From: an uncultured Clostridia bacterium
Lineage (GTDB): Bacteria; Bacillota; Clostridia; Christensenellales; UBA1242
DNA length: 64,000 nt
NCBI GenBank assembly: GCA_944360075.1
Contig: CALVTE010000001.1
Span: 7,054-71,053 of the forward strand
Direction of reading: 5' to 3'
Every line of letters begins with the position of its first letter. Positions within the stretch are counted from its first letter, which is position 1. The notes beneath the pieces are model-generated. The model was not told where the DNA came from. It did no database searches and saw only the letters and a list, made by a program, of their open reading frames with translations. Made by a program: the position numbers and the translations under genes. Shown here in pieces: positions 25,801-63,526 of the stretch.

Positions 25801-27021
25801 CACATTTTTGATTGTAAAACTGTTTGTAGCTTCTTGGCCATAGAAGTCTGTTGCAGCATATTCAATTTTGTAGTCGCCATTTTTTGGAGCGGTAAAGTTG
25901 TTGTCTTCGTCAATAGCGTTCGCAATTGTTTCCACAACATTTCCGTTTTCCAAGCGGTAAACGTTGATCTCGTAAGAAACTGCAACACTTTCGCTTGCTG
26001 GAGAATCACTGGCTGAAGTGGTTGCATTGATTGATGGCAGCGCAGTCTTCACACCAACGATTGCAGAAGACGGTGCAGAAGACGCTCTTGAAATGGTCAA
26101 AGTATAGCCAGATTTGTTATAGCTGTCTTTATAATAGCTATCTTTGACTGAGAAAGTTTTGGTGACAGACTCAATTTGCGCGTCTTTTTGCGCGCCTTTT
26201 TGAAAGAAAGTGTAAACAACATTGAAGGTGCTGCCGTTTGCGCCTTCCAATAGGTCGCCGTCAATGTAATACTTTCCTTCAGCGCTTCTTGCAATCTTGA
26301 CATTTTCTGAGTAGCCTTGGTCGAGAGTGATGGTCATATATTCATTTTCAGTTGCCTCTTCTCCGTCAATTTTGACAGGCACGTTTTCAATTTCGTCGCC
26401 ATTTTTGTCAGTGATTGTTGGGATTGGCAAAATAATGTCTTTGAAAGAGCCATCTTTTTTGCTTAAAGAAAGGTCGTAAACTGAAGGCAAAATGTTTTTG
26501 TCGTTTGTGTCAAAAGTGAAAGTAACATCGTTGATAGTGCAACGAAGGTCTAGAGTGTATGTGTAAGTAACTCCATCATCAGTCACGCTATAAACAATTT
26601 CATATTGCCCAACTCGATCAGCATCAAATTGCACACCTGATTGGAATCCACCTTCTTGCTCAGAAGAATCATAAACCACAGTGCCATCGGCATAGCGAGC
26701 AACAACTTTTGAAGTGACGCCTTCTTCAGAAGCAGTTCCAATGATGTGCGCAGTTGTTGAACCACCATAATAATTTCCTGTTGGAATAGTAAACTTCCCA
26801 CCCTTTGCTACCGTTGTTTCAATGCCGCTTGCATCAACTTCGATTCTGTTTGTGTTTTGAGCAATTTGGCCGTCGCTCAATGTTGGGTTTGAGTCTTGTT
26901 TATAGTTTGCAGCCAAAGTTTGAATAGCCCCCACAGGCACAAAAGACCCGCACAAAACAAGGGCGGCGCCAAAGGCTGCACTTTTGAAAATATTTTTTGT
27001 TTTTAAGTTTTTTCTGTCCAT
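22888..27021 (-). CDS. Large cell-surface protein with a signal peptide, multiple Ig-like/cadherin-like beta domains and a C-terminal TM anchor.
   Basis: 1377 aa. The N-terminus is KSAAFGAALVLCGSFVPVGAIQTLAANY. Recurrent segments of the type ATDFYGQEATNSFTI, TVTDAGNHSVTTYFVYEV and TVKDTAGNVSDAVKFTFTV look like the ends of Ig-like domains. The C-terminus is VLIGVASVILGGVVVYFIV followed by the basic tail SKVKENKSKKTK. Confidence 0.8.
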   Translation of the reverse strand: MDRKNLKTKNIFKSAAFGAALVLCGSFVPVGAIQTLAANYKQDSNPTLSDGQIAQNTNRIEVDASGIETTVAKGGKFTIPTGNYYGGSTTAHIIGTASEEGVTSKVVARYADGTVVYDSSEQEGGFQSGVQFDADRVGQYEIVYSVTDDGVTYTYTLDLRCTINDVTFTFDTNDKNILPSVYDLSLSKKDGSFKDIILPIPTITDKNGDEIENVPVKIDGEEATENEYMTITLDQGYSENVKIARSAEGKYYIDGDLLEGANGSTFNVVYTFFQKGAQKDAQIESVTKTFSVKDSYYKDSYNKSGYTLTISRASSAPSSAIVGVKTALPSINATTSASDSPASESVAVSYEINVYRLENGNVVETIANAIDEDNNFTAPKNGDYKIEYAATDFYGQEATNSFTIKNVRDTLSPTAYIYDAGAENVKNEDGSYKSALSHVKTKTENRNIVVFAIGGHDNHVEEKDLNLYREIRRGSNSSVLVYDIQGYDHYNLIFNAKSDSTDGKSVYKAIYDDNAYIRNQMILAGIYESDDAAIKNWLQEHKYLIVTDGKTDPVTAEAFAFENGAPTTEQGWIDLGYACIEASSSETFKTESYNVYYYADDNVETNNKSITDYSFDIVANADDMTVPTISYSTELKNSYLEDDIITLAAPTASDQVSSNGEETSEGDSYVELHTAYRYLDSSRQPIVREKTKDIKYVINEASKINISSKKWYVQADEHNVVSSSGWTILEGEDEYDIDLSEKPENAAYIEFFSYAVDDYGNVAFYSQQCYVSNIKDEEAPYLYEVVSAPDVDGGYVNDKTIVLPTLTYHDNLPHYMTSAVVVYRVEEDSQIVVHSSGMNATPNRGSGDYQLMAGQFTPSVGGTYIAAVTVTDAGNHSVTTYFVYEVEEIPVVGKIEISNIGSSQKDILVDQTETFAKPKISVAESDELGYIGFDAYSSENYAIDYMINVTEADNDKYVLNQGEGSFTANAKGSYTLQYTAFLISYPTDAKYFSMTDEGENGKLFLTTDNEGQDQLAYKADGTESLEGSGTAVAGEVYKIYRSVDENGENVIVAECDDKKLDINSLPQYANDEVVVELHEVKSSKFTFTSGEVAVNLYMDDADYPKTIYGDLTSRVLVKKLNGEVTGEGQIDLDNSTVSISVANVGGTTSTLKTLKLSDWNISQDDQTYLTQEGENIYLKLNRNGKYTITYTLKAKDYAGQPIGSTKTKSYTLSVGDVSAPTLTIENSDNKFIASKYEVGDPIDFKIADESLVTVNDPGGSSREELLDNISITVKNTSTNSAPETVKNSSDVEGEYAYSYTIEKEGSYQVTITVKDTAGNVSDAVKFTFTVGEDSIEPVNVTEIVGKVLIGVASVILGGVVVYFIVSKVKENKSKKTK

Positions 27022-28240: not shown

Positions 28241-29113
28241 TTATTCTTTTTCATTCAAACTCCCAAACAGCTTGTCAAGAGTTTCTTTTGCATCAGTTTT
28301 TGCTTGCTCAAACTCTTTCGCTTCCTGTTTTTTGCTTTCAAGCAATTTGCTAAGTTCTTCTATTTCTTCTTTAATTTTAAGCGCATCATCTGGTCCGTTT
28401 GTTTCTTCAATTTTTTGAGCATAATACTTATGTATAATTGAATTTAAAGCTTCAGAAAAACCTTCAGCCAAAAAACATTCTGGTGCTATTTCATTTATTG
28501 CTCCAAGATCTTTCTCTGCAACTCGTAAAGCCTCACTTTCATCTGCAATCTGAAAATCTTTGTTAATATGATACAATTTGTGATTTTTTCCTACTCTAGC
28601 ATAGCCTTCGCTGAAATCCCAAGCAAAATCATACCCTTCGCCATGAAGCTTAAAGTCTTTGTCGTCAACATAATACCATTTGCCATCTTTTTCTACTCTA
28701 GCATAGCCTTTTCTGAAACCTTCAGCCTTATCATATCCTTCACCATGAAGTTTAAAGTCTTTGTTGTCAACATAATACCATTTGCCATCTTCTCTTGCTA
28801 CAGCATAGCCTTCTATGAAATCACCAACCCAATCATACCCTTCGCCATGAAGTTTAAAGTCTTTGTCAACATGATACCATTTGCCATCTTTTATTACTAC
28901 AGCATAGCCGTCGCTGAAATTCCAAGCCATATCATACCCTTCGCCATGAAGCTTAAAGTCTTTGTCTACATAATACCATTTACCATCTTTTTTTACTCTA
29001 GCATAGCCTTCTCTGAAAGCGCTAGCTTCATCATACCCTTCGCCATACCATTTGCCGCCCAAGTCTTGATAAAAGTATTTTCCATCTCTTTTTACAGCCA
29101 TCATAAAATCCAT
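28241..29113 (-). CDS. WG-repeat (KWG-type beta-propeller-like) protein with a C-terminal coiled-coil tail.
   Basis: There are about six tandem ~33-aa units of the form GEGYD.A..F.EGYARV.KDGKWYYVDKDFKLH. AAAGGAGAGAG lies upstream of the ATG. Confidence 0.8.
   Translation of the reverse strand: MDFMMAVKRDGKYFYQDLGGKWYGEGYDEASAFREGYARVKKDGKWYYVDKDFKLHGEGYDMAWNFSDGYAVVIKDGKWYHVDKDFKLHGEGYDWVGDFIEGYAVAREDGKWYYVDNKDFKLHGEGYDKAEGFRKGYARVEKDGKWYYVDDKDFKLHGEGYDFAWDFSEGYARVGKNHKLYHINKDFQIADESEALRVAEKDLGAINEIAPECFLAEGFSEALNSIIHKYYAQKIEETNGPDDALKIKEEIEELSKLLESKKQEAKEFEQAKTDAKETLDKLFGSLNEKE
28560..29070. repeat. Intragenic tandem DNA repeat (~100-nt period) encoding the WG units.
   Basis: Strings such as CCTTCGCCATGAAGCTTAAAGTCTTTGTC and ATACCATTTGCCATCTTT recur at roughly 100-nt intervals on the plus strand. 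Confidence 0.7.
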
Positions 29114-41628: not shown

Positions 41629-41720
41629 GGCCCTATTTTACCAAACTTTTTATCTTTATCAAAATTATTTCAAAATGTTTAGCAAAGTTTTCAAAATTTG
41701 TCAGAATTTTTTTGAATCGC

Positions 41721-41750
41721 CAAAAAAAGCCCTGCGTTAAAACAAGGCTT
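41721..41750 (-). terminator. Rho-independent terminator, read on the minus strand, distal to the repeat array.
   Basis: On the minus strand: AAGCCTTG, loop TTTTAACG, CAGGGCTT, followed by TTTTTTTGG. The T-G wobble is only valid on the minus strand. Confidence 0.6.
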
Positions 41751-41756
41751 TATAGA

Positions 41757-42165
41757 AAAATAGAAACAAGCAGCGCAAGGGGCGAAGGCTTTAGCGGGGC
41801 GGGAGTTTGGTTAGAGCCCCAAATGACCGGACCGAATCAGCCTTCAGCAAACAGCTGCGCGCCATGGCAAATAAAACAAAGTCTGCTGCGGAGATGATTT
41901 AAACAAAATAGAAACAAGCAGCGCAAGGCTCGAAGGCTTTAGCGGGGCGGGAGTTTGGTTTACGCCCAAATGACCGGACCGAATCAGCCTTCAGTAAACA
42001 GCTGCGCGCCATGGCAAATAAAACAGATTCTGCTGCGGAGATGATTTAAACAAAATAGAAACAAGCAGCGCAAGGGGCGAAGGCTTTAGCGGGGCGGGAG
42101 TTTGGTTTACGCCCAAATGACCGAACCGAATCAGCCTTCAGCAAACGCAGCGCTGCGCCGTTTAT
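41757..42165. repeat. Three head-to-tail copies of a ~148-nt GC-rich foldable element. The family is unknown and it may be a structured RNA.
   Basis: Copies lie at 41757-41904, 41905-42051 and 42052-42165; the third lacks the ~40-nt tail. The periods are 148 and 147 nt, with only a handful of substitutions between copies. Each copy contains GAAGGCT...AGCCTTC enclosing GGGGC/GCCCC or GGGCG/CGCCC. Confidence 0.85.
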
Positions 42166-42172
42166 ATTTTGT

Positions 42173-43648
42173 TTAAAGAAGGATGCAAATCACCCCACCC
42201 TTCCCCTCATTCACAATCCTGCCCAGAGTCTTGCGCATTTTTCGTTGAGCTTCGGCGGGCATCATGAGAAGTTTGGAGTTGATGTTATCGCCAACTAGTT
42301 CAGAAAGGGTGCGGCCAAGAATGTTGGTTTGCCAGATGGATTGAGGATCGTTTTCAAATTGGTCGACAAGATTTTTGGCAAGGTCTTGAGATTGGTCTTC
42401 GCTGCCAACAAGCGGGGTGAGCTCTGTTTCAACATCAACACGCATGATGTGAAGACTTGGTGCGGTGGCTTTGATTTTAACGCCGTAGCGAGAGCCTTGT
42501 TTGATGATTTCGGGCTGACCAAGTTCGAAATCGGTTGGCTTTGGCTCAACAACGCCATAGCCAGTTTGGCTGACTTGGTCAAGGGCGTCTTTAAGTTTGT
42601 CGTATTGAATTTTTGCGCTTGCAAGGTCTTTGATGTTGCAAAGAAGTTGATAATCGCTGGCAATTTCAATCCCGCACTGCTGTGAAAGCACTTTATAGAA
42701 AAGACCTTCCTTTGGAATGACGTCAAATTTTATCACTCCTTCGCCCGCTTGAATGTTGGAATAAGTGATAGGGTCAAACGAGTCACTTTCGGCAAAGGCG
42801 ATTTGGTTTTTGTCGGCATCGCTCAGGCGATTGATTTTGCCGCCGAGAGCACGCATTTCAGAGGCGATTTCGCTGATGATTGGACTGTTATAGTCAAGAG
42901 CTCGCAGCCAATCAGGCATAGAAATTCTGATAGACTTGACAGGAAATTCCATCAAAAGATTTTCAAAAATCTTGTCAACATCGCCTTCTTTAAGTTCAAG
43001 CGCATTGAGAGCAATCACTGGCACGTCATACTTTTCTTCAAGAGACGAAGAAAGCTTTTTTGTTTCAGCGGCAGCAGGATGAGCGCTGTTTAAAACAATA
43101 ACGAAAGGTTTGCCGGCAGCTTTAAGTTCTTTTACCACCTTTTCCTCTGCGTCAATATAGTTAGAGCGGCTTATGTCTGTGACCGAACCGTCGGTTGTGA
43201 CCATAATGCCAATCGTTGAATGCTCTTTGATCACCTTGTCGGTGCCAAGAGCGGCGGCTTCTTCAAAAGGGATTTCTTCTTCCGTCCAAGGAGTTTTGAC
43301 AAGCCTTGGTTTTTCGCCTTCCACATGCCCCATCGCACCCGAGATAAGATAGCCCACGCAATCAATCATTCGCACTGACATTTCGGCGTCAGCAACCTTG
43401 ATTTTGACCGCTTCGTTTGGCACAAAATGAGGCTGTGTGGTCATAATTGTTTTGCCATCGGCACTTTGCGGCAATTCGTCAACCGTTCTTTCTTTGGAAT
43501 TTTTTTCAGTGATATTAGGAAGCACAAGTTTTTGCATAAACTGAGTGATAAAAGTTGATTTTCCCACTCTCACAGGCCCAACAACGCCGATATAAATATC
43601 GCCATTGGTTCTTTCCTTAATATCATCATAGATTTCATATTTTTCCAT
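42173..43648 (-). CDS. spoIVA: Stage IV sporulation protein A (spore coat basement-layer ATPase).
   Basis: MEKYEIYDDIKERTNGDIYIGVVGPVRVGKSTFI carries the Walker A motif, and conservation is full-length. GGAGG lies 5 nt upstream of the ATG at 43648. Confidence 0.93.
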   Translation of the reverse strand: MEKYEIYDDIKERTNGDIYIGVVGPVRVGKSTFITQFMQKLVLPNITEKNSKERTVDELPQSADGKTIMTTQPHFVPNEAVKIKVADAEMSVRMIDCVGYLISGAMGHVEGEKPRLVKTPWTEEEIPFEEAAALGTDKVIKEHSTIGIMVTTDGSVTDISRSNYIDAEEKVVKELKAAGKPFVIVLNSAHPAAAETKKLSSSLEEKYDVPVIALNALELKEGDVDKIFENLLMEFPVKSIRISMPDWLRALDYNSPIISEIASEMRALGGKINRLSDADKNQIAFAESDSFDPITYSNIQAGEGVIKFDVIPKEGLFYKVLSQQCGIEIASDYQLLCNIKDLASAKIQYDKLKDALDQVSQTGYGVVEPKPTDFELGQPEIIKQGSRYGVKIKATAPSLHIMRVDVETELTPLVGSEDQSQDLAKNLVDQFENDPQSIWQTNILGRTLSELVGDNINSKLLMMPAEAQRKMRKTLGRIVNEGKGGVICILL

Positions 43649-43671
43649 AATAACCTCCAATGATACATCTT

Positions 43672-46601: not shown

Positions 46602-47546
46602 TCAAATAAACAAAATTTTCATGACCAAAAAATTGAAAGCATTTTCGCTGAGCATTTGTCCCGACTTGATTTTATAGTCAATTTCTTCAAGAAGATTGAA
46701 GATTTTTTTCAGCTGCATTTTTGAAAAATTTTGTTGCTGCTGACGGATTTTTTTGACAGCGTATTCCTTTATGCCCAAACTTTGAGCAAGTTCTTGATCA
46801 GACTGCTGAGAAATTGAAATGAAAAACATTCTGCGAAAATGGTTTGCAACCAGCGAGATAATCCCCTGCTCTTTGGCAAGCAGGCTGGCAAGTTGCACCG
46901 CCCTGTCGACATTCCGCTCGCCAAGGGCTTGTGTGAGCTCAAAAACTGCAAATTCGTTTTCTTTGCTCACGCACTTTTCAACCATGTTTTTGGTGATAAG
47001 CGGATTTTCAAGGTCAACAAAGCAAAGCTTGTCAAGTTCGTTGATGGCCTTGGTCAAAAAGCCATTGCAATATTCAAGCAAAGCAGAAACAGCTTCTTGC
47101 GTGATTTGTTTGCCCCTCTTTGCAAGCTCGTTGACCAGCACGGCCTGAGCCATTTTCTGGTCAAATCTGCGGCAATCAACAAACTCGCACTGCTCTTTCA
47201 AAAGCCCAAACTTGTTTTCAAAGTCATAAATCACCACCACTGTGCTTTTTGGCATCTGCTCAAACCCCGCCCCAATTTTTTTAAGTTCCACCGTTGTGAC
47301 TTTTGTGATGTTTTTTAAAAGTATAAGTCGTTTTTGGTCAATCAGTGGCAAAACCTCTGTTGCATCCAAAAACCTGTCGCAAGAAAAGTTGTCATCATCA
47401 AACTTGACAAGATTGAACTCTTCCATGCTGATATGGCAGGCGTTTTTGACCATGGCAAAAGCCTTGTCGAAAAGAAACAGGTCGTCCCCTTGCAACAGAT
47501 AAACATTTTTAAGTTGTTTGTTCAACCTTGCCTTTAAAGTTTTCAA
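46602..47546 (-). CDS. holA: DNA polymerase III delta subunit.
   Basis: 314 aa. The N-terminus is VYLLQGDDLFLFDKA, typical of HolA. It lies immediately downstream of comEC with a 4-nt overlap, as in other Firmicutes. Confidence 0.75.
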   Translation of the reverse strand: MKTLKARLNKQLKNVYLLQGDDLFLFDKAFAMVKNACHISMEEFNLVKFDDDNFSCDRFLDATEVLPLIDQKRLILLKNITKVTTVELKKIGAGFEQMPKSTVVVIYDFENKFGLLKEQCEFVDCRRFDQKMAQAVLVNELAKRGKQITQEAVSALLEYCNGFLTKAINELDKLCFVDLENPLITKNMVEKCVSKENEFAVFELTQALGERNVDRAVQLASLLAKEQGIISLVANHFRRMFFISISQQSDQELAQSLGIKEYAVKKIRQQQQNFSKMQLKKIFNLLEEIDYKIKSGQMLSENAFNFLVMKILFI

Positions 47547-49606
47547 TCAAGCCCCCGAATAGATAGATTTTCTTCAAGCAGAATGGAAAAATTGCCATAT
47601 TCTTCAAAACTCAAATTGCCCTTACTTGCAAAGTTTGAAACCACTTTGGCTTTGCTGTTTGGCAAATTTGATTGGTTGTTGCCTACAAATATAATATCAT
47701 AATCATTCTGATTTACCAAATCAATAAGCGCCATATTTTCAACATTTTGAGCAAGCAAAACTTTGCTTCCGTCAAACTCAATCACAAAGGCCTTTTGCTG
47801 GTAGCTGACTTTGAAAGAGCCAATTTGCAAGGGCTGAAGAGAAACTTCAATTTGCTCTTCATCGGCCTTGTCAATGTTTGGACTGAGAATAGCCCTTGCG
47901 CCGTAATCTTTCCAAATCTTGACATCGGAAGAAGACAAATTTTCTGACAAATAAAAATCAACTTGATAGTTTTGGTCTAGTGAAGAAAAGGTTTGATAGT
48001 AGTAGTCATCGCCGTAGCAAAGACAATCACCTTCTTTGGAAGTGAAAACTATCATTTGACCTTGATACGAATTTACAAAAGAGATGGAGGCAAAGTTGTT
48101 TAAAACAAGGCTTGGAAAAATAAGAGAAAGGCAAAGAGCGAAAGCAACAAAACTTGCAGTCAAAAACCTTCCAAGCGGCCTAAGCACATAAAAGGAAGAA
48201 AGTGTGAAGAAGAAAACAACAATAAACACACTGATTGAAACAGAAAATGGCTTGAGAGGCACTTGCAGCGAAGTTGAAGCAAAGAATGAAGCGATTTGGA
48301 ACACCAAATTAAGAAAAAAGTCAAAAATTGAAAACAAGGGCGCGATAAATGGCATTATAACAACCAAAAACGCCATCACAAACATAAGCGGAAAGATAAG
48401 CGAAAAAATTGGAATAATCAAAAGGTTTGCAAAAACAGAAAGAAAGTTGAAAGATGAAAAGAAAGAAGCCGTGAAAGGCAAAATCCCAAATTGAGCAGCC
48501 ACTGAAACCGCCGTCAGCTGAGCAATCTTGTTGGGCATAACATGGCTAAGAACTCTTGTGAAAGGTTTTGCCAAAAGCAGGATGAACATAACGCAGAAAA
48601 ACGACATCAAAAAGCCCACGTCGATTGCTGAGAGAGGACTGAACAGCACAATAACAAACCCGGCAATGGCAAGAGCGTTCAAGCCATCATAAGGTCGATT
48701 GCAAATTCTTGACAGGCATAGAATAAGAGCCATGATGGTTGCCCTGACAACTGAAGGTGTGAAGCCGCAAAGATAACAATAGCAAAGCAGAACCAGAGCG
48801 ATGATTATCAGATTGACAAATTTGTTGGAGCGAAAAAGTTTGAGAAACAGCATAAGCGCGCCAACAATAAAAGAAATATGCAAACCGCTGACCGTCAGCA
48901 CGTGAACAATGCCGCTGTTGCGATAAACCTGCGACACCTCTTCTTCAATCATGCTTTGGTCACCAAACAAAACAGCGTAAGCGATATAGGCATTTTTCTC
49001 TTCCATATTTTGCAGCAGGGCGGTTTTGACTTTATCGCGAAACTGCTCGTCAATGTTCATCTGCCCAGAAGTGACCACCACCTTTGAGGCCTGCACCGAA
49101 GATGAGTAGCCCACGCCGCTACGGTAGTTTGACAGAGAAAAAACGCCTAGATTAAAACCTTTGACCTTTTCAACTTCGGCTTCAAACGACAAACTGTCGC
49201 CAACTTCAAAATCACACTCTCCAGAAACAAACACCTTCAAATTTTTGCTGCTTTGTCCGTCAATAGAAACATTTTCAAGCACAACCGACGAGTAAGACTC
49301 TTCTTGAACAAAATTTTTATCGCTCACTCTGCCCACCACCAAAACCTGGCCTTGATAGTCAGGGTTATCAAAAAATTGCATGCCTAAAAAGAAACACCCG
49401 TTGCCCGCAAAGAAAAATATTGCGATGAGCAAAATTGGCAAAATCTTTTTATAGCAGATTGAGACAATAATAACAAAAAGAAAAACAATGGCAACAATTA
49501 TAATCGCCTCAGCCACCGCTTCATACAAACTTTTGGCAATCCCCGCTCCAAGCAAAAGTGCAAGAAAGCAATAGAAGGGATAGCGAAAATTTATAAACTT
49601 TTTCAC
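47543..49606 (-). CDS. comEC: DNA internalization competence protein ComEC/Rec2. The C-terminal domain lacks metallo-beta-lactamase His motifs.
   Basis: N-terminal OB/DUF4131-like region. The competence domain carries VLFGDQSMIEEEVSQVYRNSGIVHVLTVSGLHISFI and many TM segments. There is no HxHxDH motif and no His at all in the last ~330 residues. Confidence 0.85.
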   Translation of the reverse strand: MKKFINFRYPFYCFLALLLGAGIAKSLYEAVAEAIIIVAIVFLFVIIVSICYKKILPILLIAIFFFAGNGCFFLGMQFFDNPDYQGQVLVVGRVSDKNFVQEESYSSVVLENVSIDGQSSKNLKVFVSGECDFEVGDSLSFEAEVEKVKGFNLGVFSLSNYRSGVGYSSSVQASKVVVTSGQMNIDEQFRDKVKTALLQNMEEKNAYIAYAVLFGDQSMIEEEVSQVYRNSGIVHVLTVSGLHISFIVGALMLFLKLFRSNKFVNLIIIALVLLCYCYLCGFTPSVVRATIMALILCLSRICNRPYDGLNALAIAGFVIVLFSPLSAIDVGFLMSFFCVMFILLLAKPFTRVLSHVMPNKIAQLTAVSVAAQFGILPFTASFFSSFNFLSVFANLLIIPIFSLIFPLMFVMAFLVVIMPFIAPLFSIFDFFLNLVFQIASFFASTSLQVPLKPFSVSISVFIVVFFFTLSSFYVLRPLGRFLTASFVAFALCLSLIFPSLVLNNFASISFVNSYQGQMIVFTSKEGDCLCYGDDYYYQTFSSLDQNYQVDFYLSENLSSSDVKIWKDYGARAILSPNIDKADEEQIEVSLQPLQIGSFKVSYQQKAFVIEFDGSKVLLAQNVENMALIDLVNQNDYDIIFVGNNQSNLPNSKAKVVSNFASKGNLSFEEYGNFSILLEENLSIRGLD

Positions 49607-49711
49607 AAGTTATGATTTTAGCAAATAAAACAAAATTTGAAAAACATTTTTGGTTTTTTGCAGAATTTTTTGCAATTTTAGCGATTTTTTTGAAATAATT
49701 GTTGAAAAAAC

Positions 49712-49736
49712 AAAAAAAAGCGGGCAAAAAGCCCGC
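49712..49736 (-). terminator. Rho-independent terminator distal to the solo repeat element.
   Basis: On the minus strand: GCGGGC, loop TTTTT, GCCCGC, followed by TTTTTTTT. Confidence 0.75.
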
Positions 49737-49744
49737 CTAGTTTA

Positions 49745-49908
49745 CTTATATATTACAGACCGCAGAGAAACAAGCGAGGCAAGGCTCGAAAAATGCTCAA
49801 GGCCAGGAGTTTAGCTTTTCTAAATGACTGGTTTTGTGCGTTTTTCAGTAAACGATGCAAGAAAAATTACAAGTAATTTTTCGGTCGCGCCGTTTATCTG
49901 TAGTCTGA
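49745..49908. repeat. Diverged solo copy of the 41.7-kb element, bracketed by a perfect 25-nt direct repeat.
   Basis: It shares AGAAACAAGC, GCAAGG(CTCGAA), GGAGTTT, AAATGAC.GG, TTCAGTAAAC and GCGCCGTTTAT, in the same order as the array copies. It is flanked by GCGGGCAAAAAGCCCGCCTAGTTTA at 49720-49744 and 49909-49933. Confidence 0.7.
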
Positions 49909-49930
49909 GCGGGCAAAAAGCCCGCCTAGT

Positions 49931-50179
49931 TTATTTATCTTCTTCATCCTTATCTTGCGACTTGGCTTCATCATCTTTGTCTGTTTTGTTCTCTGATGAA
50001 CTTTTTGGCATAGACACCACACCAAAAACCACCAAGATTCCAGCGATTGCCATGATTATCCCAGACACAACTTCGCTTTGAATTGAAAAACCAAAACAAT
50101 CACCCAGTGCTTGCAGCAGCACCACAACCGCACCTGATAAAGCCGTCCAAAAGCTATAAGATTTAATCTTGTCCTTCAT
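49931..50179 (-). CDS. Phage holin (phi LC3 / holin_1-like).
   Basis: 82 aa. KSYSFWTALSGAVVVLLQALGDCFGF and VVSGIIMAIAGILVVFGVV form two TM segments, followed by a charged tail. GGAGG lies upstream inside the bhlA 3' end. Confidence 0.7.
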   Translation of the reverse strand: MKDKIKSYSFWTALSGAVVVLLQALGDCFGFSIQSEVVSGIIMAIAGILVVFGVVSMPKSSSENKTDKDDEAKSQDKDEEDK

Positions 50180-50393
50180 CGTCTTGTGCCTCCAAAAATT
50201 GTTTTATTTCGTCAATATCCTGTTCGATGCGCTCCATTTTTGCCAAATGCAAAGTCAGCTGCGCGATGGTCTGGCGATAGGCCTCTTCGCGTTTTTCGCT
50301 GTCTTTAAGTTGCCAAAAAAACAGAAACACAAACAAAACGGCAAAAATTCCATTGCTGATTATCACTCTTAAAAATTCTTCCCAAAACTGCAT
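50163..50393 (-). CDS. bhlA: BhlA/UviB-family holin-like peptide.
   Basis: 76 aa. GIFAVLFVFLFFWQLKDSEKREEAY matches the BhlA pattern (GPFAVLF..LLFY..K....RE), and a coiled-coil tail follows. Confidence 0.7.
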   Translation of the reverse strand: MQFWEEFLRVIISNGIFAVLFVFLFFWQLKDSEKREEAYRQTIAQLTLHLAKMERIEQDIDEIKQFLEAQDDEGQD

Positions 50394-50494
50394 TTTGCAA
50401 AAGATTTGTCATTTCTAGCCAATTTTGAATTTTTCATAGCACCTCCACGAAAAATGTTTTGCAAACAAACTTTTGTCAGAATTGAAAGTGCTGA

Positions 50495-51973
50495 TTAGTT
50501 CTCAACGCACGCATTAAGCACAAAGGAAGAAATTTTTGAGCCCGCTTGGTCGGAAGAAATCGCAACGGAAAATTCGTCGCCATAGACCCCTGCAGGAATT
50601 TGCTGCAAAACCGAAGAGCCTTCAACCGAAAACTCCTTGGTTTGTTGGTCGCTTGTGATGACAACTTTGCATGGCAAAATGGATTTTATCAAAAAGGAAA
50701 TGATTTTTTTCTTTTTTCCATAAATGCCAAGATTTGTTTTCACGCTCTGCCATTTTGCCGGCAAAACAGCGCCAAATGATTTGCCAGAAAAAGAAAGTTG
50801 GCCGATTTTGCCTTGACTCTGACCATTAAAGCAAGCAACAAGTTTGCATTTGTAAGGATTGTTTAAGGCAAGCATCTGCTTAATGTCCACTCCCCGAACA
50901 ATCTCAACATGGCCGCTTTGCTCATCATAAACAAGCAAGGCATTGTTGCAAAACTGCAAGCTTTCGCATCCCACACTGTCGCCGTCAAAATCCATCTTGC
51001 AAGCCAGAAAATATTTGCCTTCAAAGCACTGGCCTGTGCAGTTTGCGTTGAAAGGTGAAAGCTTTTTTATCTCTGGGCAGTCAATACTGTGCACAGACGA
51101 ACCATTGAAATATTTTAGCCCTGACTTTTCCAAAAAATAAATTCGATCTCCGCTGTGAGCGATTGAATTTGGATAGATATAACTGTCCGATTGATAGAGA
51201 TGAGTGATAGAAAATTCGCTATCAGAAGAATACTCAGAAATTCTTGTTATGCCATACTCTCTGAAAATATAAACATAATCGTTGAAAGATATAAGTTTGG
51301 TCAAATTGCCTCTTCCATCAGTGAAATCCAAATTTGCACAAAGCTGATCGCTCCACTGCAAAACGTCAAGATTATCGCTATAAACAAGCCGTCCTCGAGC
51401 CTGAGCTGTGATGGCAAAAAGCCTGCCAAAGTGCGAACATAGCGAAATCATCTGCGGCGCTGACTGGCTGGTCTGCTGATTTTGCCCCACCAGCACCAAA
51501 AGGTTTTGACCTGGCCCTGAAAAAATCATTGAGTCAACCCCTTCAATTTTATATTTCATCCCAATCGGAGTGTCCGAAAACTGAGTGTTTATAACAAGGG
51601 TTGCCGGCCTTGAGGAAAACAAATTGTCATAGCAAACTTTGGCTTGGTCGTTGAAATACATGCAATAATACTTGTTTTCGTCACTGTCTTGGTCATACCA
51701 CTCAAAATCCCATAATGCCGTGACCTGATTTCCACTTATTGCCACAGTGGTTTCGTTTTCAAGGTTGGTTTTGGAAATAGGACTGGCAAAATCATCAAAG
51801 CCATAACCGCTTTCAAGTGCGCCGCTTTTTGTGCGGAAGTTATAGCAATGCTCTGTCAAATTGAAATCGCATAAACTTTGCTCTTTTTCTGTTTGAAATG
51901 GCGAAGAAAACATATCAAAAACAAATGTTTTTTTGCTGGTAGATTTTGTTTTTAGCCTGTTTTTGTAAAACAT
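50495..51973 (-). CDS. Large phage structural protein. By position it may be a tail-hub/head-completion protein analogous to P22 gp10.
   Basis: 492 aa starting at the ATG at 51973, with AAGGAGGAGGTGG upstream and an ATGA overlap with the preceding gene. It is beta-rich and Cys-rich. The function is inferred only from gene order after capsid and adaptor. Confidence 0.55.
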   Translation of the reverse strand: MFYKNRLKTKSTSKKTFVFDMFSSPFQTEKEQSLCDFNLTEHCYNFRTKSGALESGYGFDDFASPISKTNLENETTVAISGNQVTALWDFEWYDQDSDENKYYCMYFNDQAKVCYDNLFSSRPATLVINTQFSDTPIGMKYKIEGVDSMIFSGPGQNLLVLVGQNQQTSQSAPQMISLCSHFGRLFAITAQARGRLVYSDNLDVLQWSDQLCANLDFTDGRGNLTKLISFNDYVYIFREYGITRISEYSSDSEFSITHLYQSDSYIYPNSIAHSGDRIYFLEKSGLKYFNGSSVHSIDCPEIKKLSPFNANCTGQCFEGKYFLACKMDFDGDSVGCESLQFCNNALLVYDEQSGHVEIVRGVDIKQMLALNNPYKCKLVACFNGQSQGKIGQLSFSGKSFGAVLPAKWQSVKTNLGIYGKKKKIISFLIKSILPCKVVITSDQQTKEFSVEGSSVLQQIPAGVYGDEFSVAISSDQAGSKISSFVLNACVEN

Positions 51974-52524
51974 CAAAGCCACCTCCTCCTTGGCATTTTC
52001 CCATGAGGTGAAAGGCGACAAATCAGTTCTAAAGAATTTTTGAAACGCTCTTCAAAAATGTCCGCATCGTCAAAACGGCTTTGCATAAACAAAAACTCTC
52101 TTGCAACACCATAGGCAAAAATCCGCTCAGGCAAAAAACTGTCAACTTGGTCAGTTATGCTCAAAACTGGTGGCAAAATGCTATAGCAAACGATTGCTTT
52201 TTTGCAAAGAACAAAAATGTGGTCATCAAATTGCTTAAAACGCATTTTTCTGCCTAGCCCATTTTTGACATACAAAATTTTGTAAGGCTTAGCTGAAAAT
52301 TGACTGAGCAAAATTTTGCCATTTGCAACATCAAACTGCTCAATTTTTTTGATGGGCACAAATTCGCTTGCAACTTCATTGTTGACAAGGTTGAAACACT
52401 TTACAAGCCTGTCGGCAATTTCTTGCTCGCAGCTTTCAAGCGTCGAGCCTTGTTCCAGTTTTTGCGCAAGAGCTTGCTGCTCTATGAAATCACAGGATAG
52501 TTTTATTATATCTTTTACTAGCAT
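51973..52524 (-). CDS. Phage head-tail adaptor/connector-like protein, inferred by position and size.
   Basis: 183 aa. The N-terminal helical segment VKDIIKLSCDFIEQQALAQKLEQG...EQEIADRLVKCFNLVNNEVASEF resembles gp6/gp4-type head-completion proteins. It overlaps both neighbours. Confidence 0.45.
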   Translation of the reverse strand: MLVKDIIKLSCDFIEQQALAQKLEQGSTLESCEQEIADRLVKCFNLVNNEVASEFVPIKKIEQFDVANGKILLSQFSAKPYKILYVKNGLGRKMRFKQFDDHIFVLCKKAIVCYSILPPVLSITDQVDSFLPERIFAYGVAREFLFMQSRFDDADIFEERFKNSLELICRLSPHGKMPRRRWL

Positions 52525-52862
52525 AGTGCCTCCTTAAATTTGTTTACTTCTTGTTTCAGCATTTGGTTGTAAAGATTCTCGTTATATTTGTCAATCTCAG
52601 CAATAATTTTGTCCGAGTTTTCTCTTCTGGTTTTTAGGGCAAACTCGACAGCGCGCTCATCCAGGCAAGGATAAGGCAAAGTAAAGCAATAACTTCCTCC
52701 CACTTGTTCAACGCTATGCACCTCGTATTTTTGTTTTTTTAGATTGAAAACCACTCGATAACTCGGATCGACCTGCTTTAGCCTTTGACAGACAAAAAGG
52801 TTGTCGCTGTCAATAAAAACATAGTCTTTGTGGCTGTGAAAAACAAAATCTTCTTTTCTCAT
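52518..52862 (-). CDS. Hypothetical phage protein.
   Basis: 114 aa starting at the ATG at 52862, with GGGGG upstream. I recognised no motif. Confidence 0.5.
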   Translation of the reverse strand: MRKEDFVFHSHKDYVFIDSDNLFVCQRLKQVDPSYRVVFNLKKQKYEVHSVEQVGGSYCFTLPYPCLDERAVEFALKTRRENSDKIIAEIDKYNENLYNQMLKQEVNKFKEALC

Positions 52863-52915
52863 TTTTACCCCCAAATTAAAAGATAAAAAGGCAAAACTGT
52901 TTGCCTTTTATCTTA

Positions 52916-54118
52916 TTATAAACCAGAATCATCAGCGCCTGAAGCAGAACCTGAACCGATTGTGGAATTGATTTTTGTCAGAAGTGCTTGTCCACAAGGT
53001 TTGTCGCAGATAAGTTCAGCATATTTAACCAATGTTGCACTGTATGCAGGTTGGTCGGCGTTTTGCCTTAAAATTCTGCCGTTTTCACCTTCCAGCCACT
53101 TCCAGTCGCAAAGTTGATGAAGAGTGAAATCTTTTGTGCTTAAAAGGAACATTTTGCCGCTGTCAACAAATCTGTCTGCCACAACAGGAATGCCGTTGTG
53201 AGAGATGGTTTTAAAGCCCCCTTCCAAATCCATCACATCGATGTTGCGCTTGCAAGCTGAAAGATATTGCTGATAAGCTCTGCGAATTTCGGCAGTTGTT
53301 GCAATATAGTCAACTTGCGAATCGTGATTGAAATCAAGTTCGTCAATAGCCTCTTGAATAAGAGTGTCGGAAATATCTTGATTTGACGAAGGAGCAGAAA
53401 CGTAAGGCTTAAGCCATGGATAATCAGCCACGCTTACTCCATAAAGAGAAGTGTTTGTGGTGTCAAAAATTTTGCCAAGCCCAGTGATTTCATATCCTTT
53501 TGAGCCTTGGCAGTAAATTTTGTCGCCAGTTTTGATAGTTGCAGTGCCCTCAAAGTTGAAAGTTTTGTTGACTCTGTCAACATAAGTGATTTTTAGCTGT
53601 TTTGCGTTCACGCTTTCGCCAGTGTAAACATCAACAAGCATACCTTCAATAAGATTGTTGACCTTGTCGCAAGTGACAGTTTGACCGCTGGCTGTTGAAA
53701 CGGTTGCAAGCAGACCTGAGCCATCGCCATAAAGCATTCTGCCAAGATTGAAAGCGCTTGCTTTGACAAGTCCTTCCATTTCGTCAGAAAGAAGGTTTAC
53801 AAAAGCGCCCAAGTTGTTTGCAGAGGCTCTGATTGCCTTGTCTGAAAGTTCGATTTTTCCATACAAGTTTTTAAGCTCGGCAGTAAATTGCACATAACTG
53901 TTGCCTGAAGATTTTGGCAGTGATGCAGTTTCGCTTCCTGCTCCCACACCGCCGTTGATGCCAAAAGGTGCAAGTTTGCGGATTTCTTTTCCCCAAACAT
54001 CTTTGCTTGACATTTTGATTTTTGCCAAAAGTGGATTTGATCTTACGTTGAGTTGGTTGGCAACAACACCAAGATAAACATTTTTCAATGCACTTTCGGC
54101 CGATGTTAAAGTTACCAT
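52916..54118 (-). CDS. Phage major capsid protein (HK97-fold type).
   Basis: 400 aa. GKIELSDKAIRASANNLGAFVNLLSDEMEGLVKASAFNLGRMLYGDGSGLL follows the HK97-family pattern (...s.e.l.d....l...l...l......E...l.GdG.g...G). AAAGGAGAAA lies upstream, and the gene follows a scaffold gene. Confidence 0.75.
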   Translation of the reverse strand: MVTLTSAESALKNVYLGVVANQLNVRSNPLLAKIKMSSKDVWGKEIRKLAPFGINGGVGAGSETASLPKSSGNSYVQFTAELKNLYGKIELSDKAIRASANNLGAFVNLLSDEMEGLVKASAFNLGRMLYGDGSGLLATVSTASGQTVTCDKVNNLIEGMLVDVYTGESVNAKQLKITYVDRVNKTFNFEGTATIKTGDKIYCQGSKGYEITGLGKIFDTTNTSLYGVSVADYPWLKPYVSAPSSNQDISDTLIQEAIDELDFNHDSQVDYIATTAEIRRAYQQYLSACKRNIDVMDLEGGFKTISHNGIPVVADRFVDSGKMFLLSTKDFTLHQLCDWKWLEGENGRILRQNADQPAYSATLVKYAELICDKPCGQALLTKINSTIGSGSASGADDSGL

Positions 54119-54181
54119 AATTTCTCCTTTTTTTAAGTTTTTTTAAGTTTTTTTGCAAGAAAAAAGTCGAAATCTGAAAAT

Positions 54182-54847
54182 TTAGTTAAACATTTTGCTC
54201 ACAATCTCTTTTGCTTCGGCCAAGGAAGATGGAGTGTCAGGGCTTAAGCTTGACACTCTTTCTCCGCCTTGTGAAGAAATGACATAAGGTGGTTTGTGCT
54301 TTTCGAGATTGTTGAGATATTCTTGAATAACTTGATTTCGCACTTGCTCGTCCGACAAAACATATTTGTTTACAATCGGGTCGCTGGCTTTTGGTTTTGT
54401 TCCAGTCAAATGATCCAAAACCACCCCTGCCCATGCGACTTGATAGGGGTCGGCTACAGTTGAAGAAGCATGGATTTTTTGCTTGATTTCTTCTTCAAAC
54501 TGTTTTGCATCATCATTTGCCAAAAGGAATGATTCAAGATTGCTTTGAATTTGTTGACTATGCTCTTCCTGCTTTTGTTCAAACTCGATTTGTCCCTGTG
54601 TTTGGTCAGGCTGAGCCGTTTCTTTGCCTTCTTGAGCCATTTTGTCTTTTTGCATTTGACTGAGCTGTTGGCATTTTTTGGTAAACTCGCTCTGCAAATT
54701 GTTATAGGCCTCTAACAACTTATCTGCAGATTTGAATTTGCCATATTGCCCCTGAGAGCCGACTTCACTCGCAGCACTCTCTTCACTCGTTATGTTTATA
54801 ACATTTGCCGGTTCCACAGTCGGTTGTTCTCTGTTTTCTTCTTCCAT
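54182..54847 (-). CDS. Phage scaffolding protein.
   Basis: 221 aa, Gln/Glu-rich and predicted helical. It lies between portal and capsid. AGGAGG lies upstream, and the start is 1 nt after the portal stop. Confidence 0.65.
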   Translation of the reverse strand: MEEENREQPTVEPANVINITSEESAASEVGSQGQYGKFKSADKLLEAYNNLQSEFTKKCQQLSQMQKDKMAQEGKETAQPDQTQGQIEFEQKQEEHSQQIQSNLESFLLANDDAKQFEEEIKQKIHASSTVADPYQVAWAGVVLDHLTGTKPKASDPIVNKYVLSDEQVRNQVIQEYLNNLEKHKPPYVISSQGGERVSSLSPDTPSSLAEAKEIVSKMFN

Positions 54848-54848
54848 T

Positions 54849-56693
54849 TTAGCCTCCTATTTGTTTTTTATGTTCGCGTATATGCTCCAAGAAAATTTCT
54901 TCAAGCCTCGCGTTATCTTTTTTTGCCTTTTCAAAATCTTGTCCAAGCATAAAGGCGATATGCTCGTTGATATGCAGTTTATGCTCATCAATTTCCATGG
55001 TTTTGCAGACCACACCATCAAGCATTTTCAGATTTTCGCTTGCCGCCTTTTTGATGTGCAGTTCATTCAGATCTTGAGCATTTTCCCAAATGCCGAGCCC
55101 CAGCATCTCCATAATTTTGCATTTTGTGGTGTTTGAGATTTTGCCTTGCTCGTCTTGCAAAAGGCCGTTATCCAAAAGTTTGAAAACCATGTCTCGTTTT
55201 TGCGACGGCAAATTCAAGTTGTCCGTTTGCGCCGACAGGGTTATATCATCACTCGTGATATCGCTGCTTGAAAAATAAAACATATCCACCTGCCCATTTT
55301 CACCCACAATTTTTGCCAGTCTTGGAAAGAGTGCAAACTGCCGATATAACTTCAAAATATATCCAGCAAGCATTTTGCAGGCGTTTTTTATGCTTTCACT
55401 TGTTGCATTAAGCCTTGCTTCGTCTTGGCTAATCATAAGTTCAAGCGCCACACCACTTATGTTGGCAGAGGCATAATCTGTGCCAAGAGTCTCGCTCACG
55501 CCGCTGATTTTTGTAAATTCTTCCAGCAATTTTTCTTCTTCGTCATCAATGCCGTTTGGCAAGTTTTCTCCTTCCAAAAATTTTGGAGCCACCGAACCTT
55601 GCCTATACACCAAAATTTTGCCTGGGCAAAGGCCTTCATCTTCCAAATTGTCAAGGTCAACCGAGCCATCTTCCACGCTAAGCACACCCATTGAAAGCCT
55701 GTTGACAAACTCGTGCTTGCGGTTTTTTATGGCATTGTAAGCCCGTTGGACTGGAATAAGTCGCTCGATGATGCTTGCGCCCCAAAAACAGCCCGGCTCT
55801 TCGGTGCAAGTTTGTCTGATAAATGGAAAGTCTCGCTCTTTGTCGGTGCCAAGCTTGTAAGGCAGCGGCCCATCATAAACCAATTTGTCACCCGCAACTA
55901 TAACAAGTCTGCCTTCTGGAAATTGAGCATTTGGTCTTGAGTATTTTTCAATCACGATTGCGCTGTCAGCCTTGCCGCTTTCAATGATTTTTGGCACTGT
56001 TCCATTTGAGCCCAGCCCGCCAATGCCTTCAACTGTGCTGCCAAGGGCAAAAGTGTTGATGGTTTTGCCTTCAGTTTCAACGCCATACATCTGCTTGATT
56101 TGGTCGATTGAATATGCCTTTGCGTGAATTATGCTTTGGCACTGGTCAATATCTTCACAAACAGTCGAGTCGGGATAGATTTCAAAAGGGCTGAGCACCG
56201 ACACTTCAACTTCGCCGCTTCTGACCTCTCTGCCCTTTTCATCTTTGCCAACAACAGTGCCTTTTGACGGGTTCCAGCCCACTTTATAAAAAGCTGTTCC
56301 GCAAACTTCCGCCCATTTGATTGCTTTGTTGACAAGCTCTGGCAAATTGAGTTTGTTTTTGACCGCTTCAAAAATCTTTTTGCTCACCTTTGCCGAATGC
56401 TTGTCTCGCTCATCATTTGTGGCTGGAATGATGGCAATATCTGGCTTTATGTTGGCAAGTTTGGCATAACGAATATCAAAAATTGGCGCTATATGGTTGA
56501 AAACTTCTCTCTCTTGCCAAAAAAATTGTTTTTCGCTCTCTTCAATGCCGCCATAACCCACCGAACAAAATTGATTGCCCATCAAAAAGTTCATATTCAT
56601 CTTCCAGATAAGGTCAAAACTTTTTCTTGCCTGTGCTCTTTTTTCAAAATCTTCCAAAATTTGCCTTACCAATTTGTTTTCTTCTTTTTTCAT
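54849..56693 (-). CDS. Phage portal protein.
   Basis: 614 aa. The N-terminal segment RKSFDLIWKMNMNFLMGNQF and the later segment VSVLSPFEIYPDS...SIIHAKAYSIDQIKQMYG follow common portal patterns. Its position before scaffold and capsid is consistent. Confidence 0.75.
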   Translation of the reverse strand: MKKEENKLVRQILEDFEKRAQARKSFDLIWKMNMNFLMGNQFCSVGYGGIEESEKQFFWQEREVFNHIAPIFDIRYAKLANIKPDIAIIPATNDERDKHSAKVSKKIFEAVKNKLNLPELVNKAIKWAEVCGTAFYKVGWNPSKGTVVGKDEKGREVRSGEVEVSVLSPFEIYPDSTVCEDIDQCQSIIHAKAYSIDQIKQMYGVETEGKTINTFALGSTVEGIGGLGSNGTVPKIIESGKADSAIVIEKYSRPNAQFPEGRLVIVAGDKLVYDGPLPYKLGTDKERDFPFIRQTCTEEPGCFWGASIIERLIPVQRAYNAIKNRKHEFVNRLSMGVLSVEDGSVDLDNLEDEGLCPGKILVYRQGSVAPKFLEGENLPNGIDDEEEKLLEEFTKISGVSETLGTDYASANISGVALELMISQDEARLNATSESIKNACKMLAGYILKLYRQFALFPRLAKIVGENGQVDMFYFSSSDITSDDITLSAQTDNLNLPSQKRDMVFKLLDNGLLQDEQGKISNTTKCKIMEMLGLGIWENAQDLNELHIKKAASENLKMLDGVVCKTMEIDEHKLHINEHIAFMLGQDFEKAKKDNARLEEIFLEHIREHKKQIGG

Positions 56694-62677: not shown

Positions 62678-63526
62678 TTATTTAAAAACTTTAAGTCCTC
62701 TTGCGCCACAAGGCAAAACAAGTCCGTCTTGGCAGGAAAGTCCAATCTCGTCGGCATCGATATTGCCAGAGCCAAAACAAAGCGACAAAATGTTTTTTAA
62801 AACAGTGGGCTGAAGCCCAGTTGTATAGGACGAAATCAGCACAAAAAGAGGGTTTTTTGACAGAATTTTTTTGCAGAGCATAACAAAATCAAAAAGATTG
62901 TCTTCCAGCTTCCAGGTCTGCCCATTCGTGCCACGACCATAACTTGGCGGATCCATTATGATGGCATCATAACTATTTCCTCGTCTGATTTCTCGTTCGA
63001 TAAACTTTGTGCAGTCATCAATCAAAAATCTTATGGTGGAAATATTGTTGAGTCGTGCATTTTCCTTCGCCATTTCAACAATGCCTTTGCTGGCATCAAC
63101 GTGCGTCACCTCCGCTCCCGCTTTGGCACAAACCACACTTGCCCCACCAGAATAGGCAAACAAGTTGAGCACTTTGATTTTTCTACCAGAATTTCTTATA
63201 AGGCTGTCAACGTCCTGCCAGTTGACTGCCTGCTCAGGAAAAAGGCCGGTATGTTTGAAGCCCATCGGTTTGACAACAAACTTCAGCCCCTGCCAAGAGA
63301 TGTTCCACTGCTGCGGCAACTGACCAAAAATTTGCCACTGACCACCGCCAGAGGAGCTGCGCCTGTATACGGCGTCAATTTTTGCCAGTTTTTCAAGTGG
63401 CTTGTCTGTCTTCCAAATCACCTGTGGGTCGGGTCGGATCAGCATATAATCGCCCCATTTTTCAAGTTTTTCTCCCATATTTGTGGAAATAACTTGATAA
63501 TCTTTCCAATTTTGTGCAATTTTCAT
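62678..63526 (-). CDS. Class I SAM-dependent methyltransferase, likely an rRNA methyltransferase (RlmI/RlmK C-terminal-domain-like).
   Basis: Motif I VLNLFAYSGGASV. An acidic residue follows beta-2 (THVDAS). Motif IV is IIMDPPSYGRG. Confidence 0.75.
   Translation of the reverse strand: MKIAQNWKDYQVISTNMGEKLEKWGDYMLIRPDPQVIWKTDKPLEKLAKIDAVYRRSSSGGGQWQIFGQLPQQWNISWQGLKFVVKPMGFKHTGLFPEQAVNWQDVDSLIRNSGRKIKVLNLFAYSGGASVVCAKAGAEVTHVDASKGIVEMAKENARLNNISTIRFLIDDCTKFIEREIRRGNSYDAIIMDPPSYGRGTNGQTWKLEDNLFDFVMLCKKILSKNPLFVLISSYTTGLQPTVLKNILSLCFGSGNIDADEIGLSCQDGLVLPCGARGLKVFK

Follow-up and report, generated by a model that had tools for sequence, protein, structure and literature searches.

We report here that an insert of 158-164 nt, lying between the stop codon of a phage-type holin gene and its terminator in the window (the whole stretch of 64,000 nucleotides of uncultured Clostridia DNA that was analysed), is very probably a non-autonomous DNA transposon (MITE) that has the ends of an IS1182-family subgroup, is directed to the feet of hairpins and leaves the hairpin duplicated. 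The insert has the size of a MITE and carries no transposase gene, its terminal inverted repeats make up the closing stem of the window copy, and it is flanked by a target-site duplication of 25 nt (exact) or 31 nt (one mismatch). Dispersed copies exist at ~59 loci and the window copy is polymorphic between strains, with 4 empty and 6 filled alleles. The ends are common to autonomous IS of 1.56-1.66 kb, which were found in other genomes than the MITE hosts. With regard to the IS1182 family itself, a DDE transposase is encoded by one of these full-length elements (L149) and none in the window, insertion takes place at the stem-loop foot without primary-sequence specificity, the target hairpins of the MITE being all different, and the stem-loop is duplicated, which is not the IS1272-type outcome of a deleted stem-loop and no duplication. 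Elements of this kind are already known; what is new is this member family, with the details of its hairpin-length duplications and conserved core.

The target was the stop codon and terminator of the holin gene (49931-50179, minus strand, 82 aa, Phage_holin_1, phrog_297), and the gene downstream of the duplicated terminator is comEC (Competence domain, 47543-49606, minus strand). The 25-mer GCGGGCAAAAAGCCCGCCTAGTTTA has two exact occurrences within the window, at 49720-49744 and 49909-49933, with 0 exact repeats of this kind expected from 100 shuffles, so the perfect duplication described in an earlier, sequence-only reading of this DNA is real. At one mismatch the repeat extends to 31 nt (49719-49749 and 49908-49938), and these are the left and right target-site duplications. 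When folded, both flanking copies give an identical 6-bp GC hairpin (GCGGGC-AAAAA-GCCCGC at 49720-49736 on the left, 49909-49925 on the right). The left hairpin is followed on the minus strand by a T run of eight (49712-49719), making a working-looking terminator that a consensus scan places at 49738-49718, and the right copy spans the holin stop codon (49931-49933, minus strand); the sequence and the terminator scan agree with the earlier statement that the T run accompanies the left hairpin only and that the stop codon belongs to the right copy.

There are 164 nt between the 25-nt copies, and the element itself (49750-49907, plus strand) holds short chance ORFs only and no credible ORF. Its closing stem (ACAGACCGCAGAGAAAC / GTTTATCTGTAGTCTGA) pairs ~49756-49775 with 49889-49907, a tip hairpin at 49809-49825 has GA/GA internal-loop motifs on either side, and an optional extra hairpin can be drawn at 49861-49882. 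The right end, read as the reverse complement, is TCAGACTACAGATAAA, in which 13 of 16 bases agree with the IS1182-type terminal repeat. As the outer left terminal repeat of full-length copies is absent and the right end has three mismatches against the 16-mer, the window copy may now be immobile.

An exact-protein look-up of the holin retrieved ten metagenome-assembly contigs from the same species, all with conserved gene order. Six of these (L001-L004, L006 and L010) carry the insert with a sequence identical to that of the window, and the other four (L005, L007, L008 and L009) have no insert and a single TAAACTAGGCGGGCTTTTTGCCCGC followed directly by the T run. The empty-site contigs are shorter by 188-189 bp, the spacing between holin and comEC being 325 nt in filled and 136-137 nt in empty alleles, and the comEC promoter region downstream of the insertion site is unaltered. 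Because four of the ten same-species contigs carry the empty site, the insert at the holin site is a presence/absence polymorphism whose target duplication has the length of the hairpin. The sequence-only reading had proposed that an original stop codon plus terminator became duplicated around an insert, and had advised a search for empty sites in related strains; such a site, with one hairpin, its T run and no insert, is what these four contigs contain. On parsimony the polarity of the change would be gain of the insert, the alternative being deletion between the repeats.

In order to describe the family more widely, species-representative genomes were scanned once with a pattern of three tip and stem motifs. 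This returned 71 loci, of which ~59, with motifs spanning 46-51 nt, are true copies, the remaining matches having longer spans, coming from unrelated phyla and being due to chance. The true copies are spread over some 20 MAGs of uncultured Clostridia, several of which are labelled Catabacter, Christensenella or Caccopulliclostridium, with up to ~16 copies in a single genome, and a covariance model of the element (R1, described below) has 73 matches within the scan loci. A typical copy was also seen in L021 (CALXSB010000017.1), a contig from a bin labelled uncultured Rickettsiales, which is probably a binning or labelling error. In the main subfamily 22 copies lie between direct repeats of 13-31 nt (median 20), the repeated sequence being a different hairpin at each locus, and in their reconstructed empty sites a GC-rich hairpin stands between an A run and a T run, which makes a bidirectional intrinsic terminator. 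By context, 11 sites lie between convergent genes, eight after a gene antisense to the element and four after a sense gene. Since locus-specific hairpin repeats are shown by 22 copies, the 25-31 nt duplication in the window is the rule of the family and not a local accident. The targeting of terminator hairpins, which had been suggested from the two loci of the window, is also borne out by the different hairpin that is duplicated at each of these 22 other loci.

These observations bear on an origin of the holin-site arrangement, repeat, insert and repeat, with no mobile element at all, by local tandem duplication, by replication slippage or as the remnant of a phage attachment site. Such an origin would suit a site at the edge of a phage-like gene block and a family that forms local tandem arrays elsewhere, however the 164-nt insert is homologous to dispersed copies in many genomes, the order hairpin, element, hairpin recurs with different hairpins at 22 loci and the empty allele is a clean single hairpin. 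We consider it hardly credible, and the simple local tandem duplication that the sequence-only reading had held out as an alternative is refuted by the empty allele, the 22 hairpin loci and the R1 homology taken together.

Evidence for the parent of the element comes from its ends. Full-length copies of the subfamily have TCAGACTGTAGACAAA or close variants at both ends (the family consensus), and exact TCAGACTGTAGACAAA is present in 12 MITE copies. Viral contigs scanned for TCAGACTGTAGACAAA gave 87 loci, with inverted pairs 1563-1657 bp apart in L097, L122, L136, L137 and L149. A 513-aa ORF inside one such pair (L149, 2941-4482) is an IS1182-family transposase, with 465.8 bits to NCBIfam NF033551 at a cut-off of 270 and the Pfam domains DUF772, DDE_Tnp_1_6 and DDE_Tnp_1, and related plasmid sequences carry the same annotation. 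The target behaviour of these ends is also that of the MITE, with a hairpin ending <=2 nt from the junction in 60 of 73 distinct TCAGACTGTAGACAAA outer flanks compared with 9 of 73 in a control taken 70 nt farther out. Exact duplications of the hairpin, 17, 19 and 20 bp long, flank three full-length copies, and a fourth full-length pairing has one of 24 bp whose two ends were not confirmed on one contig. Three of six full-length copies (L122, L137 and L149) lie between two different hairpins, as do a few copies of the MITE (L022, L044 and L060), which could reflect either insertion between neighbouring hairpins with loss of the spacer or later recombination of copies. Two mini-elements of 49 and 62 bp (L155, 4098-4146; L162, 11084-11145) were also observed, which contain little beyond two terminal repeats and each of which lies between two different hairpins. 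As a negative control, degenerate 17-mers of the left-end variant (TCAGYKTGTMGACAAAT) found chance matches in coding sequence of the viral contigs with no adjacent hairpin.

The window and 62 loci of MITE-bearing genomes yielded neither a transposase gene nor a full-length IS; in those loci both extra terminal-repeat motifs and multi-copy ORFs were used in the search for a partner and neither gave one. The IS1182 link therefore rests on identical termini and on target behaviour in other genomes, and mobilisation in trans by an IS1182-type transposase would be the corresponding route in this host. Two core-motif patterns had 0 matches in the viral contigs. The covariance model detected no structured core within the full-length IS copies or in their vicinity, so in those elements the core is not IS-derived.

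An IS30-family transposase of IS1630 type was the first parent that we considered, because of the literature on long inverted-repeat duplications, and the subterminal TGTAGA of the element resembles the IS30 tip. In Mycoplasma, IS1630 (duplications of 16-26 bp) and ISMhom-1, both of the IS30 family, are the other documented instance of variable-length inverted-repeat duplication (PMC2853133, PMC3317919, PMC7648426), and ISMhom-1 likewise inserts at the 3' ends of genes (PMC7648426). They differ from the present element in transposase family and in their ends, and are autonomous at ~1.2-1.4 kb. This candidate was dropped on finding the IS1182-type relatives, and mobilisation by an IS30-type enzyme is highly improbable given that the exact 16-bp termini sit on elements with an IS1182-family transposase and that no IS30-type gene was seen.

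Derivation from an IS200/IS605 element (PATE) or from a group II intron, the kinds of parent to which the sequence-only reading had pointed, is something to which we attach next to no weight. Both use or target hairpins, and class C group II introns insert after terminators, but both insert without a target duplication, in contrast to the long duplications seen here; the element shares its terminal inverted repeats with a DDE-transposase IS, and there is no Rfam match to the element, intron models included. In place of that suggestion the ends point to a DDE-transposase IS of the IS1182 family. Retroposition (SINE-like, target-primed) was likewise rejected because both ends are precise, the hairpins are specific to each locus and a DDE-type partner exists.

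For a MITE with IS1182-type ends we propose the following sequence of events. The transposase of the subgroup would read no target sequence; the ends of the element would be joined to a DNA stem-loop, one at each foot, and this stem-loop would most plausibly be a cruciform that the palindrome of an intrinsic terminator has extruded, a target geometry that we infer. Joining at feet that lie on opposite strands, followed by gap repair, would duplicate the whole hairpin, and for this reason the duplication would match the hairpin in length (family, 13-31 bp; window copy, 25-31 bp). The holin terminator would have been struck in some strains only, which would leave the hairpin on the stop-codon side without a T run and the other copy with its T run. 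In filled strains the holin transcript would accordingly meet a hairpin without a U run and then the sequence of the element; transcription probably continues across the element, antisense to it, and ends 189 nt farther on at the second hairpin, and read-through of this sort would provide the holin transcript with a 3' end that is long and structured.

IS1272 and the composite transposon TnSha1 of staphylococci (IS1182 family) enter terminator hairpins confirmed by RNA-seq with no primary-sequence preference, part of the stem-loop being deleted and no duplication being formed (PMC4923244). In the model of Wan et al. stem-loop-replacing transposition takes place at a cruciform, and an alternative pathway b joins the 5' feet and duplicates the whole stem-loop (PMC5678879). 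The present elements are like IS1272 and TnSha1 in the transposase family of their full-length relatives, in their 16-bp terminal inverted repeats, in insertion at the foot of a stem-loop and in having as targets terminators or other stem-loops without shared primary sequence. Unlike IS1272 they usually duplicate the hairpin, in which they match the whole-stem-loop-duplication pathway of PMC5678879; the window element further differs from IS1272 in being non-coding and 158-164 nt long and in having a covarying rod-like core that the full-length IS copies lack. Correia, ERIC, RUP/BOX and bcr1 elements (PMC3184786, PMC10969869) are similarly small, non-coding and dispersed between genes with terminal inverted repeats, and are predicted to form long RNA stem-loops that are often in 3' untranslated regions, whereas their duplications are short and fixed (TA, 2-9 bp) and here the target hairpin sets the length.

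The holin locus therefore offers a clean natural case of structure-guided transposition, in which a hairpin sets the duplication length and both alleles segregate in one species, and our data support the published IS1182 whole-stem-loop-duplication pathway for full-length elements as well as for a miniature derivative. The insertions part stop codons from terminators and add a very stable hairpin of 130-150 nt to 3' ends, and for this reason they may alter termination and mRNA stability in uncultured gut Clostridia. With regard to annotation, duplicated terminators around a structured insert can mark this class of element.

The window holds a second locus of the same family at spoIVA (42173-43660, minus strand). 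Tandem Repeats Finder reports 147 nt x 2.7 units at 41757-42153, and the array (41757-42176, plus strand) comprises a complete unit 3 (42046-42176) together with units 2 (41915-42040) and 1 (41766-41865), in both of which the closing stem is without its 3' half. Unit 3 has the spoIVA stop codon (42173-42175) inside its closing stem, and downstream of the array a minus-strand terminator-like hairpin with T run (41722-41752), read from the sequence, would end the spoIVA transcription unit. The array is thus bracketed by a minus-strand stop codon and a minus-strand terminator, the placement that had been claimed for it. Exact look-ups of SpoIVA and of a neighbouring 106-aa protein matched no record.

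A MAFFT alignment of the three array units and the holin-site insert reproduced every shared block listed in the sequence-only reading. Covariance model R1, built from an alignment of 30 diverse relatives with the window insert and array unit 3 among them, scores the insert (49755-49908) at 118.5 bits (E ~1e-25) and unit 3 at 95 bits, units 2 and 1 being partial matches of 46 and 32 bits. These scores show a likeness far beyond chance, which disposes of the possibility, raised together with the proposal of such a model including the holin copy, that the likeness might be no better than chance. The rewriting of stems is genuine (GAAGGCT/AGCCTTC to GAAAAATGC/GCGTTTTTC, CGG/CCG to CAG/CTG) and belongs to a family-wide covariation, so that blocks, scores and covariation all uphold the view of the insert as a diverged member of the structured family of the array with pairing-preserving changes.

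Among same-species contigs (L082-L085) the array has two or three units, and contigs from two other species (L070 and L079) have a single element copy at the same spoIVA position. L084, which is empty at the holin site, retains a three-unit array at spoIVA; because of this and of the strain-dependent unit number we regard the spoIVA copy as old and amplifying locally and the holin copy as recent. Local tandem arrays of partial copies are present at L061 2832-3038 and L018 958-1232 as well as in the window (41757-42040), the first of these consisting of three 70-nt partial units that have lost the inner stem entirely (junction GGCTC|AGTAAAC). Nested in three element copies, whose long stem it splits, is a second small hairpin repeat, GGGTTCCCTGAAAATCGTAAGATTTTTAGGG beside GTGGCTTAGCCAC (L033, ~5674-5910; L045, ~581-900; L059, ~4200-4482), which was also seen as a short tandem run in L048. 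It has the look of a further mobile hairpin family, one that inserts into the element described here.

The spoIVA copies of the window, L070 and L079 belong to a set of short copies with other closing-stem sequences and no flanking hairpin repeat (L053, L052, L062, L078, L043, L064, L061, L026, L069, L054, L076, L016, L070, L079 and window 42046-42176). At all 14 informative loci these adjoin or run into the stop codon of an opposite-strand gene (-15 to +4 nt), in one relative orientation, and the genes beside them include spoIVA, argS (twice), recR, clpP and an ABC transporter. The terminator is often farther on, with degenerate partial copies or small tandem arrays on the far side. The position of the short copies may fit an IS1272-type replacement of the terminator stem-loop, which leaves their orientation bias unaccounted for.

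The conservation of the core raises the question as to whether the element is more than a transposon. In the alignment of 30 copies the consensus is rod-like with 47 pairs, one or more compensatory double changes occur in 33 of these, and the paired fraction of cells is 94.6%, compared with 78.5% in column shuffles and 35-44% when the partner is slid by 1-3 columns. The covariation score is 0.462 against 0.159 in the control, and 0 of 500 shuffles equalled the observed paired fraction or covariation score. On the plus strand G·T cells outnumber A·C cells by 99 to 12 (43 to 12 once two invariant G·T columns are set aside). All 30 copies fold better as the plus strand than as its complement, and the GC skew of the window would give a mutational bias opposite to the plus-strand G·T excess. 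Across subfamilies the core motifs are better conserved than the termini. A pure double-strand (cruciform) role does not predict the strand asymmetry, therefore selection on a single strand, of RNA or of DNA, is possible. With respect to these figures, the 30 copies are mutually related and the search pattern forced three conserved motifs, so the invariance of those motifs is partly ascertainment.

One might read the element as a functional structured RNA in the first place (a small RNA, or a 3'-end or antisense regulatory module), with its spread and terminal repeats secondary, and selection on a plus-strand RNA fold would then account for the conserved core. The 33 compensatory pairs of 47, the 94.6% of cells paired, the plus-strand G·T excess and consistently better plus-strand fold, and the greater conservation of core motifs than of termini are all what this would lead one to expect, as is the single orientation of the short copies at opposite-strand stop codons (14/14) and the presence of the spoIVA copy in three genomes. 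We nevertheless think it unlikely. Foldback transposons also keep their arms complementary, part of the motif invariance is ascertainment, and in the orientation that agrees with the flanking genes the mRNA would contain the complement, which folds less well, and not the plus strand; there is also no Rfam match and no convincing promoter. Furthermore such a role would leave the hairpin duplications and IS ends unexplained and could be true only in addition to the transposon reading. The negative results come from Rfam 15, which gave 0 matches over the whole window at the gathering score and sub-threshold chance matches only at both loci at permissive E-values, from ARAGORN, which recognised no tRNA and no tmRNA, and from a consensus promoter scan of both strands, which showed no convincing promoter.

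The sequence-only reading had argued from structure kept despite sequence turnover to a functional RNA or DNA structure. Its premise stands, as the covariation is clear, and the step to a functional RNA does not follow, since covariation in a foldback transposon, whose arms stay complementary anyway, is by itself no proof of one. While the MITE with IS1182-type ends is our preferred account of the element as a whole, there is a minor chance that its rod-like core is a single-strand module (RNA or DNA) selected on the plus strand and more than transposon filler. One possibility for such a core is a domesticated antisense or 3'-end element that has replaced the terminators of housekeeping genes (spoIVA, argS, recR and clpP) in fixed orientation; another possibility is that the core imitates the hairpin target from within the element, and that the transposase would need such a mimic to mobilise it.

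Several other features of the window were recorded. The holin gene belongs to a phage-like block (49931-56693) between comEC and an ABC transporter, with two holins, a major head protein, a portal and several proteins without family match, and no polymerase, terminase or integrase was recognised among its scanned ORFs. As all the same-species contigs examined have this block, it may be a remnant that has been domesticated and not an active prophage. A 102-nt tandem repeat at 28571-29046 (4.7 copies, ~81% matching) lies within the gene of a WG-repeat protein (ORF 28241-29113, minus strand) and is a coding repeat unrelated to the MITE. Finally, CAAAAAAATTCTGNCAAA (minus strand) recurs between terminators and the start of the next gene at 41697-41728, 49650-49690, 62856-62887 and 26404-26435, and is probably an A-tract with a -35 promoter element.
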